A stretch of DNA of 64,000 bases from the sequence record ON075799. One strand, 5' to 3'. Below are positions 187 to 43,486 of this stretch, piece by piece; positions within the stretch are counted from its first letter, which is position 1; each line of letters begins with the position of its first letter. The position numbers were made by a program, and so were the translations under genes. The DNA is from Escherichia phage vB_EcoM_TH18. The notes under the pieces were generated by a model. That model saw nothing but the letters and a program-made list of their open reading frames with translations, did no database searches and was not told the DNA's origin.

Positions 187-2154
187 TCACGCCACATTAA
201 TATTAAATTTCGCCAACGGCGATGTAATGTCACCTTTACTGGTTGTTTGAACATATGCAACACCAAATAAAACCGTACCCGCAGCATATCCGTATTGTTT
301 TACTTGATCTGCGTGGGTAAATGTGTAACTATTAGTGGTCAATGTTTGTTGAGATATAACATCCCCTGTCAGGACATCAAAGTTAACAAGGGAGAACTTG
401 TTATAATCTCTGGTATCCCATGACAAAAGAATGTCTTGGTTAGCTTGTCTTACTGCCTTTCCTCCACTAGGAACTTTCATATCCACCCAAGCAGGAGGTG
501 TGCTCGACAAGTCTTCCATGTTAGCCAAGGATATCGCAGCATTCTTATAAATTGTTGGTCGGTACTGTATTCTTAAACCATTACCTGCCCCAGAAACAAC
601 ATAATTGCCATAGTCTTCAGCACCATCAACCCAAGAGCCAATTATAACGTCGCCATTGGAATCTGCCACCAACTGTTGTTGAATATTTCTATAACGATAC
701 CACTCAACACCACCTACCTCAACACTACCATCAAAGCATCTACCAAGAGTCTGCAATACAATCTTGGCTTCTGGGTTTGCAATAGCAGAACGGATATTAT
801 CAAAGATTGCGGTCATAGCAGACTGAAAACGAGCATCATCGCTATGTTTCCCTTCTTCTTTTGCTGCTGCCACCATAGCATCTTGCTCTCCTAACGACCA
901 GAAAACAGCCTTAATTTTATCCTTATAAGGTTTAACCTTCGCAAGGAATTGTGTTAGACATGGACCTGCTGTGGAGGAACTAACGTCATACCAGTAATTT
1001 GTGGCTGGCCCTGTAGAGGAGTTTGCCTGTGCTTCTGCACAAGATGCAATGAATGTGGCATTTATTGGTAATACCTCTGCTGGGTAAAACCCTTTGTGAA
1101 GAGCATACTCATTACGTGCTACGGTTGCACTTTGGCTTGTTTTGTCCCTACCGGAAAAAGAATTAAAATGCGCTGCTGCGTTATCGCCGCCAGCAAAAAC
1201 AAGCACCTCTTTAACAAAAGAGTCGTCAACAGTAACATTATTATTAAAAGCTATAGGTATTGTTTCTGGATTTGATCCTTTGATGTGCACAATAAGATAT
1301 GTAGGGGCAAATCCAAAGATAGGGACTGACTCTGTAACATCAAAGAATACAAATGTGTCTTTGGTTTTCTTACTCCACACAACCTCCATCCCCTCAGAGT
1401 CATAAACCTCTACGGTATAAATATCATCCGAGGAGGGAAATTGAACATCCCACGCTATCTTAATGTCACCATAGCTGTTGGCTACAGCAGTAGGATTTGT
1501 AAGTGCTGGAGCTATATCTACATATACATCGGTAAGTGTCGTTACTATCACATCTCTATAGGTTCCTTTCATACCACAATGCCCGACACCTCTACCAGCA
1601 CATGTAATGATACCACTAGGAGCCAGACTTAATACATCAGGTGTTTCAGAAACTGCGGTGACATAAAAATCATCATCCTCCATAACTTCTGCTGGAGAGA
1701 TGTTAAAGCCAATCATATTCCTATTCGGATTGCCTGGGTCAAAAGACGGGTCGCCTTTATAGACAAACCAGAATCTATCTCCAACACTTCTACTGCCTAT
1801 AGGATCAACATCAATGCGTAATGTGTCAACATGACCATTGATTTGTGCTGTCAAGGTCTTTTCTTCATCTCCTTTACCCGTCTTTGCAGACATTGTAATG
1901 ATAAAATCACCATCTTCAAGAAAAGATACTAACCCTGTAGGGTCAACAGATACAATCGTCGGTTTGTCTGGTGTAAACGTTATATCATGCAAGTCTGCAC
2001 CTTCCGGCACAACAGACCATATTAATTGTGCTTTGCCTCCTTTAAGACACGTACCGAGGGAGGTTAAGGAAACGGAGTTGGCTAGAGGGTTATTGGAAAT
2101 AATGATATAAAAACAAGGAATTGGATACATTACTCCTCCTAAAACAAAGGCCAC
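187..2154 (-). CDS. Tail fiber / tailspike-like protein (655 aa)
   Basis: Long ORF at distal end of tail-fiber gene block; beta-rich composition; no domain confidently recognised. Confidence 0.45.
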   Translation of the reverse strand: MAFVLGGVMYPIPCFYIIISNNPLANSVSLTSLGTCLKGGKAQLIWSVVPEGADLHDITFTPDKPTIVSVDPTGLVSFLEDGDFIITMSAKTGKGDEEKTLTAQINGHVDTLRIDVDPIGSRSVGDRFWFVYKGDPSFDPGNPNRNMIGFNISPAEVMEDDDFYVTAVSETPDVLSLAPSGIITCAGRGVGHCGMKGTYRDVIVTTLTDVYVDIAPALTNPTAVANSYGDIKIAWDVQFPSSDDIYTVEVYDSEGMEVVWSKKTKDTFVFFDVTESVPIFGFAPTYLIVHIKGSNPETIPIAFNNNVTVDDSFVKEVLVFAGGDNAAAHFNSFSGRDKTSQSATVARNEYALHKGFYPAEVLPINATFIASCAEAQANSSTGPATNYWYDVSSSTAGPCLTQFLAKVKPYKDKIKAVFWSLGEQDAMVAAAKEEGKHSDDARFQSAMTAIFDNIRSAIANPEAKIVLQTLGRCFDGSVEVGGVEWYRYRNIQQQLVADSNGDVIIGSWVDGAEDYGNYVVSGAGNGLRIQYRPTIYKNAAISLANMEDLSSTPPAWVDMKVPSGGKAVRQANQDILLSWDTRDYNKFSLVNFDVLTGDVISQQTLTTNSYTFTHADQVKQYGYAAGTVLFGVAYVQTTSKGDITSPLAKFNINVA

Positions 2155-38467: not shown

Positions 38468-38559
38468 TGGCGGTTCCTGAAGGATTCGAACCTTCGGTGG
38501 GGAGATTCATTCCCAACGGCTTAACAGGCCGTCACCATCGACCACTCGGTCAAAGAACC
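38468..38559 (-). tRNA. Class II (long variable arm) tRNA with anticodon GUU (Asn by anticodon)
   Basis: 92 nt; acceptor GGUUCUU/AGGAACC, D-arm with CCGAGUGG, anticodon arm ACGGC-CUGUUAA-GCCGU, 20-nt variable arm, T-arm GAAGG-UUCGAAU-CCUUC, G73, CCA. Confidence 0.6.
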
Positions 38560-40407: not shown

Positions 40408-40483
40408 TGGTGGGAGTGGTAGGCTCTGCCCCTACGTCCTCTCGATTATCGGTCGAGCGATCTACTAACTGATCTACACTCCC
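40408..40483 (-). tRNA. tRNA-shaped gene, anticodon GAU (Ile by anticodon), with non-canonical D-, anticodon- and T-loops
   Basis: All four stems perfectly paired, but T-loop is GGCAGAG (no UUC), D-loop AGUUAGUA lacks GG, anticodon loop CCGAUAA has C33. Confidence 0.55.
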
Positions 40484-41305: not shown

Positions 41306-41505
41306 AAAATAAGAATGCTTTATAGTGTATGGTTACTCAACCTCACTCCAACTTCCACAGTTGGTGCTCTACGAGCATGACTACGTTTGAAATCAACGTT
41401 GCGCACCGATAGCTTTCTCACGCATTGTATGCCTCATTCCCAACAAATGCTGATCAGACATTTATATCGAATAATATAAGCTAATACACTATAAAACAAA
41501 CTTGT

Positions 41506-41602
41506 GGCTGGGTGATGGAATCGAACCACCTATGTATTCAACGGCTTCCCCGTCTATTTTCAGGATTATAAATCCTCGCCCTTGCCAAAGGGCTTACCCA
41601 GC
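41506..41602 (-). tRNA. Atypical 97-nt tRNA-like gene (possible anticodon UAU) with about 30-nt extra segment
   Basis: Canonical acceptor GCUGGGU/ACCCAGC, D-arm GCCC-UUUGGCAA-GGGC, T-arm GGUGG-UUCGAUU-CCAUC; anticodon region is a 4-bp stem with loop UUUAUAA followed by 30 extra nt; CCA not encoded. Confidence 0.35.
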
Positions 41603-41604
41603 AT

Positions 41605-41679
41605 TGGTGCTCGCAGCAGGTTTCGAACCTGCAACCCCCTGCTTACAAGGCAGGTGCTCTACCGTTGAGCTATACGAGC
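41605..41679 (-). tRNA. tRNA-Thr (anticodon UGU)
   Basis: Acceptor GCUCGUA/UGCGAGC, anticodon arm CCUGC-CUUGUAA-GCAGG, T-arm GCAGG-UUCGAAA-CCUGC. Confidence 0.75.
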
Positions 41680-42044
41680 AATAAGACATTGCTTCCGATT
41701 AACAGCCTTGAGGCTTTACAGACCATATCTTGTGAGCCATAACCTGTGCCAAGGATTTCAGATGATAAACGAAATTTTATCTTTCAAGAGTCAACTTTCA
41801 AGTTTCATCTTTTACATTTAACCATTGACCTTTATTGTATGAACTTTTACTTAGTGGAAACAACAAGGCATCTTCGTGTGCCTCGCTGCATCTATGTCCT
41901 GTATTATCCTCATACATATACGATACATGGTGGGGGATATTTAACCTCCAACCCCCAGGAGGCAAGATGATGTAAACTTCGTTAATCAAAAGCAATGTTT
42001 TAAATTTCAAAACAAAGGAACGATAATGATATTATCAGAGCCTT

Positions 42045-42692
42045 TTAGAGAGAGTGCTCAATCTCAATTTCTGTCTTAGCGTTTGACTCAGACAACGCAA
42101 AATCAACGTTAGACAAGAAATCTTCAATCTCTTCTTCAAGAGAACGAATCTTAGAAGCCAGTTCAAGAGGATCCACAACCGATGGTGTGTTCATCATTCG
42201 AATAGGAGCTTCCACAGTCTTAATCTGCTCTGCATCTGGCGCTTTATCACGTTGGATATATGGCGCTCTTGCATTTTCAAGTTTATCTTCCAGAGATTTT
42301 TCTTCTTTTGCCAGAAGAAGCTGTGCAGAAGCACGCTGTGCACAAAGTTTGTTTAACAACTCTTGTTTAAAGCAAATCGTCCGTTTGCGTTCGATTGCCT
42401 CAGCAACTGTCATAGACACATTACCAATTTTGACAATTGTCTCAGCATTAGACTTAACAATTTTTGCTTTCAGTTCATCACGCACTGCCAAGAGGTCTTG
42501 CAGACTTTGATAGTCGTTGATCGCAGATTTCTTAAAATCATCAACAGAGCCGATATAACCCGGAATCTTACAATTATTCTCAGTTCCTTTTGCAATCTTA
42601 ATACAATCAAGATTGTAGATACGCTTATTGATCTTATCTTCAATTTTAGAGATAGAAGCAAGTGCACGAGTTACGGAAATCTTAGTAGACAT
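42045..42692 (-). CDS. Hypothetical protein (215 aa)
   Basis: ORF with coiled-coil-like charged regions. Confidence 0.4.
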   Translation of the reverse strand: MSTKISVTRALASISKIEDKINKRIYNLDCIKIAKGTENNCKIPGYIGSVDDFKKSAINDYQSLQDLLAVRDELKAKIVKSNAETIVKIGNVSMTVAEAIERKRTICFKQELLNKLCAQRASAQLLLAKEEKSLEDKLENARAPYIQRDKAPDAEQIKTVEAPIRMMNTPSVVDPLELASKIRSLEEEIEDFLSNVDFALSESNAKTEIEIEHSL

Positions 42693-43409: not shown

Positions 43410-43486
43410 TGGTGGCCCCTGCTGGACTTGAACCAGCGACCAAGCGATTATGAGTCACCTGCTCTATCCAACTGAGCTAAGGGGCC
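43410..43486 (-). tRNA. tRNA-Met (anticodon CAU; elongator-type or lysidine-modified Ile2 not distinguishable)
   Basis: Acceptor GGCCCCU/AGGGGCC with G1-C72, anticodon loop CUCAUAA, T-arm GCUGG-UUCAAGU-CCAGC. Confidence 0.75.

Follow-up and report, generated by a model that had tools for sequence, protein, structure and literature searches.

The window analysed here is a stretch of 64,000 nucleotides from Escherichia phage vB_EcoM_TH18 (ON075799), and a tRNA-like RNA gene of 97 nt was found on its minus strand at 41506..41602, the discriminator C at 41506 included. Directly upstream and in the same direction lies tRNA-Thr(UGU) (41605..41679, minus strand), which was called by both ARAGORN and Rfam and encodes its CCA; just 2 nt (AU) separate this CCA end at 41605 from G1 of the element at 41602. 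An earlier note, made from the letters of this DNA, had described a 97-nt tRNA-like gene with acceptor, D and T arms placed close to tRNA-Thr, with about 30 extra nucleotides containing a small hairpin after the anticodon stem and with no encoded CCA. This description was borne out by the sequence and by the cloverleaf obtained on minimum free energy (MFE) folding: 30 nt, including a 5-bp hairpin, run from the anticodon-like hairpin to the T stem, and the discriminator C is followed by ACA, not CCA.

Reading along the minus strand from 41602, the element begins with the 5' strand of the acceptor stem, GCUGGGU (41596..41602), whose partner ACCCAGC lies at 41507-41513, followed by AA and by a D arm made up of GCCC, the loop UUUGGCAA and GGGC (41578..41593); of the two adjacent Gs in this loop, the latter (G19) pairs with C56 at the elbow. 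The anticodon-like hairpin AGGA-UUUAUAA-UCCU (41562..41576) is 15 nt long, has the invariant G41577 and G41561 at its flanks and leads into a conserved, A-rich, single-stranded linker, AAAAUA (41555..41560; GAAAAUA when G41561 is counted). The extra ('variable-arm') hairpin GACGG-GGAAG-CCGUU (41540..41554) has 5 bp and differs from that of phage rV5 by a compensatory change (GACGA/UCGUU). It is followed by a second conserved single-stranded linker, GAAUACAUA (41531..41539), the AAUACAUA part of which is invariant family-wide, and by the T arm GGUGG / UUCGAUU / CCAUC (41514..41530), which was placed by the Rfam alignment and by covariation; ACCCAGC and the discriminator C complete the gene. The acceptor stem thus comprises seven pairs, and both the D arm and the T arm are of canonical size. 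Positions 8 and 14 are A8/U14, the inverse of the usual U8/A14, in 26/26 sequences of the family described below, which may be an isosteric swap.

MFE folding of the element gave a cloverleaf with one extra hairpin at -37.3 kcal/mol (z = -3.28 against shuffled sequences, with equally good folding in 1/200 shuffles). The 4-bp stem with a 7-nt loop, UUUAUAA, that the earlier note had drawn was found to be one reading of the anticodon-like hairpin; in the MFE fold the same 15 nt are drawn instead with 5-6 bp and a 5- or 3-nt loop. Automated detection, proposed in that note as a check, gave a divided result. ARAGORN left the element uncalled in the window and a default filtered Rfam scan did not detect it, but a sensitive scan with the Rfam tRNA model RF00005 matched it over model positions 1-71 with 33.1 bits (E = 3.5e-5; gathering threshold 29 bits). 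To align it, position 27 had to be deleted and 26 nt inserted ahead of the T arm. By comparison, those cluster tRNAs that Rfam detected scored 41-74 bits and the rV5 homologue 35.5 bits.

A sigma-70-like promoter match, TTGAAA-16-TAAAAT (41774..41801, minus strand; a consensus match only), lies about 95 nt upstream of tRNA-Thr, and no terminator-like site was seen from there to the element. From this site the Thr gene, the tRNA-like RNA, a second structured RNA (here called Y) and the Arg and Cys genes may be transcribed. Y is likewise conserved and extends from about 41498 to 41316 (minus strand), between the tRNA-like RNA and tRNA-Arg. It is closed by a stem of about 13 conserved pairs, which lengthens to as many as about 17 bp in the fold of the window copy, and a D-stem-like GCUC/GAGC holds an insert of about 108 nt. 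An anticodon-like hairpin of 6 bp and a mini T-like one are also present. Folding gave z = -3.57, and RNAalifold on nine Avunavirus/Seunavirus sequences returned 50 pairs, compensatory changes being seen at 17. In other genera an X element of about 190 nt with a 17-bp closing stem is situated directly after the CCA of the tRNA-like RNA. The neighbouring open reading frames matched only families of unknown function and gave no lead to a protein partner; the adjacent 215-aa protein (T5.085 / PHROG 1491 family) yielded a confident all-helical model (pLDDT 87.6) with no informative PDB match.

The region of the window is identical to that of Escherichia phages 18-1-2, 19-1-2 and 24-2-1, and is closely similar to that of phage Av-05 (Vequintavirinae, Avunavirus), with 99% identity in the 500 nt around the element and about 94% over 20 kb. 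When the element was used as a blastn query, matches were obtained in about 200 phage records. From phage homologues together with IMG/VR and metagenome contigs, 26 distinct sequences were assembled, one copy per genome, from five genera and from metagenomes. The genera are Vequintavirus (rV5), Avunavirus, Seunavirus (PVP-SE1, 4MG, GAP31), Henunavirus (Hena1) and Mydovirus (BIS47, Mydo, Ro1), and the element is conserved throughout the Vequintavirinae (rV5-like phages), as judged from the sequences compared. A covariance model built on the family (R1) gave a single match in the window, which scored 102 bits, with real tRNAs at 22.6 bits or less. Searching the first 100 of 120 IMG/VR loci with a matching D-arm pattern with the same model returned ordinary tRNAs only (at most 22.5 bits), and scans of IMG/VR and metagenomes for the 3' motif returned Vequintavirinae-like contigs only. 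No member from outside the Vequintavirinae-like group was thus seen in these IMG/VR and metagenome scans. Between the window phage and rV5 the element is 92.8% identical, compared with 71-76% for six canonical tRNAs, making it the best-conserved RNA gene of the cluster between the two genera.

Across the alignment of the 26 sequences every stem cell was paired (520/520, 100%), and 10 of the 20 pairs had changed on both sides: four in the acceptor, three in the D stem, one each in the anticodon-like and T stems and one tertiary. All seven acceptor pairs were kept, three of the four D-stem pairs covaried, the anticodon-like stem exchanged A-U for G-C and the T-stem pair 51:63 exchanged U-A for C-G. 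The tertiary elbow pair 19:56 was changed from G:C to U:A in 8/26 sequences, the G:C form combining the D loop UUUGGCAA with the T loop UUCGAUU and the U:A form combining UUUGUCAA with UUAGAUU. None of 500 covariation shuffles reached the observed values, and pairing fell to 30-47% in controls in which the partners had been slid. The same five-way junction was obtained by independent MFE folding in 17/17 distinct homologues, and RNAalifold independently gave the same helices. The element consequently has a tRNA body, in which a 7-bp acceptor stem is accompanied by D and T arms and the elbow between D loop and T loop is intact. A shortened anticodon-like hairpin and an extra hairpin set between invariant linkers join this body in a five-way junction, and compensatory substitutions have preserved every helix as well as the 19:56 pair. 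The earlier note's wording of a 'tRNA-derived structured RNA' is strongly supported by this covariation of all stems and of the elbow pair and by the conserved linkers at the extra hairpin.

The comparative covariation is the decisive evidence that the element is beyond chance. Together with the identity values, it excludes a chance fold and also two overlapping fragments, as covariation within the acceptor requires one continuous molecule. An intron or split-gene reading was rejected as well, since conservation is highest at the flanks of the insert, and to our knowledge no bacterial mechanism for such a reading exists. Decay of a former tRNA, for instance a tRNA-Gly or tRNA-Lys that had suffered an insertion, would account for the loss of CCA and for the discriminator C or U in Avunavirus, and the disagreement of annotation pipelines over the element points the same way. 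However, a pseudogene would not be expected to keep all stem pairs in 26 sequences by compensatory changes, a tertiary pair among them, to surpass the other RNA genes of the cluster in conservation between two genera, or to persist in five genera and in divergent metagenomic lineages, and this explanation is regarded as most improbable.

The unpaired segments on both sides of the extra hairpin are conserved. GAAAA, on its 5' side, is invariant in 26/26 sequences and was unpaired in 17/17 independent MFE folds, and AAUACAUA, on its 3' side, is invariant in 26/26 despite covarying stems at its flanks. In a search for base-pairing targets, the complement of the conserved linker (TATGTATTC) was not enriched in the window, where 2 matches were found against 0.73 expected, one of them being the element itself. 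The extra hairpin, on the other hand, takes at least three forms, longer or different hairpins occupying the same place in other lineages, and FENT2 and LNA4 have different forms of it and are identical elsewhere. This contrast suggests that the arm may be exchangeable as a module. Putative kissing of the loops of the anticodon-like and extra-arm hairpins (UCCA:UGGA; in 4MG, GCCA:UGGC) represents a single event, and in the other arm type it is lacking.

A further possibility is that the tRNA shape serves RNA processing alone, having been kept only for precise cutting of the polycistronic transcript by RNase P and the 3' enzymes, with release of the neighbouring tRNAs and the Y/X elements. In keeping with this, the element always starts 2 nt past the CCA of the upstream tRNA, even though that tRNA varies (Thr, Ile, Arg or Leu), and in many genomes a structured RNA of about 190 nt begins directly at its 3' end. 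In rV5, however, the element lies between tRNA-Ser and tRNA-Thr with X and Y absent nearby. RNase P moreover needs only the stack of acceptor and T arm, which leaves the linkers, the D arm and the elbow covariation unexplained, and it gives no account of a genus-invariant hairpin or of 93% identity across genera. Processing punctuation is therefore considered very unlikely.

The anticodon-like hairpin is where the family departs from tRNA. It measures 15-16 nt between two invariant Gs, compared with 17 in tRNA, and is invariant inside each genus, yet ten variants with nine loops (5-7 nt, depending on how closing pairs are drawn) occur among the 26 sequences, with U, A or C at position 33. The loop is UUUAUAA in Avunavirus, the window phage included, UUUUUAA in Vequintavirus and C/UAUCAAA in Henunavirus and two divergent metagenomic lineages. 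In Seunavirus and Mydovirus there is an additional closing C-G pair and the loops have 6 nt (CAUCCA, CUUCCA, CCUCCA, CCGCCA or CAGCCA). As possible anticodons, UAU is found only in three Avunavirus sequences and UUU in rV5, the others having UCA, UCC or GCC. ARAGORN rejected the homologues everywhere except in rV5, where it reported a 4-base 'anticodon'. In the related loci scanned, tRNA-Thr has the anticodon UGU wherever it is present. An anticodon arm 2 nt (one base-pair layer) short, with a variable loop and position 33 beside neighbours that keep their anticodons, argues that the element is probably non-decoding.

It had been proposed in the earlier note that the element might be a variant tRNA reading AUA. 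In the window the case can be made: with the 7-nt loop reading the hairpin offers U33, the anticodon UAU and A37-A38, and the pairs that close the loop, G30-C40 and A31-U39, are identical in the phage's own tRNA-Ile2 and tRNA-Lys. Its top, GA-UUUAUAA-UC, has only two differences from the Ile2 arm (GA-CUCAUAA-UC) and likewise two from the tRNA-Lys arm (GA-CUUUUAA-UC). When codon frequency was checked, as had been suggested, AUA proved frequent in phage genes: its frequency was 17.7 per 1000 across 40 long phage ORFs, where it served for 28% of the Ile codons; the phage's use of AUA is several-fold higher than that of E. coli. That much favoured the proposal, but a family-wide AUA role remained unsupported, as the hairpin of 15-16 nt, the lineage-specific loops and the variation at position 33 do not fit a shared decoding function. 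Gene 43410-43486, called by ARAGORN as tRNA-Met(CAU), shares 96% identity with the usual AUA decoder of E. coli, tRNA-Ile(CAU), and with this ileX-like gene present the element fills no AUA gap in the decoding set of the phage. Moreover, IleRS prefers A73, a determinant that is absent from both the window phage (discriminator C) and Av-05 (U). CCA is not encoded, the element being the only one without it among 18 tRNA-type genes of the cluster (17/17 others encode it). An AUA-decoding role is accordingly judged possible but unlikely.

The nucleotides read by synthetases were also compared across the family, in which N73 is U, A or C (C or U inside Avunavirus) and CCA is encoded in most lineages. 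In the Seunavirus and Mydovirus loops positions 33 and 34 vary and C35, C36 and A37 are constant; these copies also have U73, G1:C72, C2:G71 and an encoded CCA. The combination of U73, G1:C72 and C2:G71 with C35-C36 is the glycine identity set of E. coli (PMC9976931). A canonical tRNA-Gly(UCC) is also present in the lineages with such a Gly-like loop, so that decoding by the Gly-like copies would be redundant. The rV5 copy combines UUU with A73, the lysine identity set (PMC9976931), and none of the six canonical tRNAs of rV5 is for Lys. C2-G71, an antideterminant for SerRS (PMC9976931), is invariant in the family, which argues against charging with serine by way of the long arm. The pattern, which represents few independent events and is suggestive only, would fit selection for recognition by synthetases or other readers of the anticodon arm without selection for the ribosomal U-turn.

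The main competing explanation is an aberrant tRNA that remains active in translation in a lineage-specific manner, as tRNA-Ile(UAU) reading AUA in the window phage and as tRNA-Lys(UUU) in rV5. Its altered anticodon stem and extra arm may then confer resistance to host nucleases that attack the anticodon arm. Here rV5 provides the strongest case, for with its lysine-type anticodon and discriminator and in a genome lacking a canonical tRNA-Lys the element could be a working Lys tRNA. The BASEL annotators, too, labelled the element tRNA-Lys. The anticodon-like loop and AUA usage of the window phage can be read in the same sense, and so can AriB cleavage at anticodon-stem positions 40/41, from which T5 escapes by changes there (PMC12409363). 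These phages also carry further odd but probably working tRNAs (a 92-nt tRNA-Asn in the window phage and an 86-nt tRNA-Lys in PVP-SE1), so an odd shape alone is no proof of non-decoding. Against translation stand the anticodon helix, one layer short in all members, the 6-nt loops or A/C33 of most lineages, the Avunavirus discriminator, the unencoded CCA that is unique in the cluster, the ileX-like AUA decoder that the phage already has and the low RF00005 score relative to the detected cluster tRNAs. A translating tRNA is consequently judged unlikely, though it deserves to be kept in view for the E. coli-phage branch, where the loop looks like a genuine anticodon loop (U33, A37-A38 and shared closing pairs).

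The reading preferred here, at a probability of roughly 0.55, is that of a non-decoding tRNA mimic that would be matured like a tRNA, is possibly chargeable and would act on tRNA-recognising enzymes. The element would be co-transcribed with the tRNA cluster from the cluster promoter or promoters, cut by RNase P at G1, 2 nt past the CCA of the upstream tRNA, and given a tRNA-type 3' end, to which the host CCA enzyme would add CCA in the window phage. It would most likely read no codons on the ribosome, its tRNA-shaped body, perhaps aminoacylated, being presented instead to proteins that recognise tRNA. The most plausible role would be that of a decoy or competitor aimed at defence enzymes of the host that act on tRNA, with a non-ribosomal aminoacyl carrier as the alternative.

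Precedent comes from the PARIS effector AriB, which cuts tRNA-Lys(UUU) as well as tRNA-Thr(UGU) and tRNA-Asn(GUU) in the anticodon stem, and against which T5 tRNAs rescue infection (PMC12409363). More generally, phage tRNAs counter tRNA nucleases such as AriB, and some viral tRNAs have been proposed as competitive inhibitors (PMC12409363). It is on account of these known countermeasures and of the proposed competition that a decoy or competitor is preferred as the specific mechanism. The top of the window hairpin would, on such a mechanism, imitate an Ile2/Lys anticodon arm. A more elaborate version, which we consider quite unlikely, is a chargeable non-decoding decoy whose arm top and discriminator evolve to imitate the host tRNA targeted by tRNA-directed immunity, the linkers and the swappable extra arm forming a second surface for binding the nuclease or toxin and thereby trapping or inhibiting it. 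The imitation would then follow host range, being Lys/Ile-like in phages of E. coli and Gly-like in phages of Salmonella, Klebsiella and Cronobacter. In the literature we found neither a published description of the element nor published evidence for a decoy or carrier role.

The element is known to annotation pipelines, and as far as we found it has not been described as a family. Depositors have labelled it as tRNA-Lys, as tRNA-OTHER "???(atcc)", as tRNA-TERM in the form of Stop(tta) or sup(tca), as small hypothetical CDSs or as nothing at all, and in the Av-05 records no tRNA is annotated in the region inspected. Such inconsistent labels in about 200 GenBank genomes mislead surveys of tRNA repertoires and of stop-codon recoding, and a dedicated covariance model would mend the annotation. 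Phage tRNA clusters are now viewed as weapons against tRNA-cleaving bacterial immunity; if the element is indeed a conserved and probably non-decoding tRNA shape, a layer of RNA mimicry would be added to this conflict. It is a testable candidate in well-used model phages (rV5, PVP-SE1 and BASEL Bas48-52).

When known RNA classes were compared, the element was not filed as an ordinary tRNA in spite of passing the RF00005 threshold, because the anticodon-arm feature (17 nt, U33 and a stable anticodon) failed. Like canonical and long-arm class II tRNAs, it sits in a tRNA operon and combines a 7/5 acceptor/T architecture with a D stem of 4 bp and with the G18-G19/T-loop elbow. The variable arm of class II tRNAs emerges directly at positions 44/45-48, whereas the extra hairpin of the element is set off by 6-7 and 9 unpaired conserved nucleotides. 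Identity as a Ser, Leu or Tyr class II tRNA was rejected on these long unpaired linkers, on C2-G71 and on N73, which is U, A or C rather than G73 (Ser) or A73 (Leu, Tyr). The tRNA-Sec model (RF01852, threshold at least 47 bits) reached 39 bits at best (Hena1) and 23-27 bits in the other homologues scanned, and tRNA-Sec, with its 8/5 architecture, 6-bp D stem, UCA and G73, differs from the element (7/5 architecture, D stem of 4 bp, U73, and UCA in some lineages only). No tmRNA was reported by ARAGORN, and the element has 97 nt and no ORF. The YrlA/Y RNA-like model (RF02553, at least 69 bits) gave 14.5 bits in an alignment that ran across two genes. Beyond tRNA and tRNA-Sec, no matching family was found in Rfam.

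Among RNAs that accompany or resemble tRNAs, the T4 tRNA cluster contains stable non-tRNA small RNAs (species 1 and 2, RNA C/D) that are matured together with the tRNAs. The likeness to these is one of description, and the element differs in keeping a complete tRNA core. The staphylococcal non-proteinogenic tRNA-Gly of cell-wall synthesis is a precedent for a tRNA of glycine identity acting off the ribosome, and the Seunavirus and Mydovirus copies keep C35-C36, U73, G1:C72 and C2:G71; that tRNA has a normal architecture, unlike the element, and no partner transferase was identified in these phages. The allo-tRNAs, with 8/4 or 9/3 acceptor/T architecture (PMC5389517), were rejected on the 7/5 architecture of all members.

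The tRNA mimics (plant-virus 3' TLS, mascRNA and YrlA; PMC9976931) present a tRNA fold to tRNA enzymes without decoding, as is proposed for the element, and likewise carry identity-like elements. They show no sequence or model similarity to the element, which has a small gene of its own within a phage tRNA operon and is neither a genomic 3' end, like the plant-virus TLS, nor a Ro-binding RNA, like YrlA. The nuclease-evading phage tRNAs, exemplified by T5 tRNA-Lys, tRNA-Thr and tRNA-Asn against PARIS AriB (PMC11464382, PMC12409363), are also phage-encoded, sit in a cluster and have changes in the anticodon arm, and the rV5 copy likewise has a Lys anticodon with A73. The T5 tRNAs are otherwise canonical, with decoding shown and a tie to PARIS, whereas the element has a shortened arm, an extra domain and doubtful decoding and is likened to them from its sequence. 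In function, the element would appear to stand closest to the tRNA-like mimics and to the nuclease-evading phage tRNAs.

Next to the tRNA-like RNA, the 97-nt conserved gene of the tRNA cluster, a further conserved structured RNA of about 180 nt, here named Y, was located between this gene and tRNA-Arg (41316-41498, minus strand). Its closing stem comprises about 13 conserved pairs, and as many as about 17 bp when the window's copy is folded by itself. Y also has a D-stem-like GCUC/GAGC pairing, which encloses an insert of about 108 nt, as well as a 6-bp anticodon-like hairpin and a mini T-like hairpin. The Y fold gave a z-score of -3.57, and RNAalifold analysis of nine sequences from Avunavirus and Seunavirus found compensatory changes at 17 of the 50 pairs. 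No match to Y was found in Rfam, and it looks like another tRNA-derived RNA.

A second element, X (about 190 nt), is distinct from Y and missing in the window. In PVP-SE1 (Seunavirus; locus L001, approximately 410-596, minus strand) it begins immediately 3' of the CCA of the tRNA-like RNA, and it is also present in Hena1 (Henunavirus), Ro1 (Mydovirus), FENT2 and K54rec4. The X closing stem is 17 bp long and shows covariation between PVP-SE1 and Hena1. Over the same stretch, a 56-amino-acid CDS is annotated in some records; its reading frame is broken in Hena1. As with Y, comparison of X with Rfam yielded no match.

The tRNA-like RNAs of FENT2 (L016) and LNA4 (L014), compared over positions 228-335, differ in the extra arm only, this being the additional hairpin between the anticodon-like hairpin and the T arm. 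The two copies are otherwise identical and their extra arms belong to two unrelated types, which suggests that the arm is swapped as a cassette.

Unusual architecture was also observed among the cluster's tRNA genes. The 92-nt tRNA-Asn(GUU) (38468-38559, minus strand; Rfam tRNA model, 56.8 bits) carries a long extra arm, GGGA-AUGAAUC-UCCC, together with G73-CCA, and is a class-I isoacceptor with a class-II-like body; its PVP-SE1 equivalent is 85 nt long. A tRNA-Ile(GAU)-like gene (40411-40483, minus strand) was detected by Rfam only (53.4 bits), with no call from ARAGORN. In this gene GG is absent from the D loop (AGUUAGUA) and GGCAGAG takes the place of UUCRANY in the T loop, and the elbow is therefore altered; CCA is encoded. 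A further architecturally aberrant tRNA within the subfamily is the 86-nt 'tRNA-Lys' of PVP-SE1 (L153, 6079-6164, minus strand), read by ARAGORN as ???(ggca), in which the CUUUUAA loop is normal and an insertion of about 10 nt lies between the D and anticodon arms. In metagenome contigs L169 (2791-2865) and L160 (7862-7934), both of which carry the tRNA-like RNA in a divergent form, a tRNA with the amber-suppressor-type anticodon CUA, labelled tRNA-Pyl by ARAGORN, lies in the same tRNA cluster.

Adjoining the window's cluster is a gene for a 215-amino-acid protein (42045-42692, minus strand). Its homologues occur across 737 phage records that span many groups, among them the T5-like, Bacillus, Vibrio, Pseudomonas and jumbo Erwinia phages. 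This is the T5.085 family, corresponding to PHROG 1491, whose label, 'tail fiber', looks doubtful. Sequence searches of Pfam, NCBIfam and the PDB returned no match. AlphaFold gave a confident model (pLDDT 87.6) made up entirely of helices, and fold comparison with it gave no informative match.

The gene at 43410-43486 (minus strand) was called tRNA-Met(CAU) by ARAGORN. It shows 96% identity to E. coli tRNA-Ile(CAU) of the ileX/ileY type and is thus the AUA decoder of this phage and not a Met tRNA.
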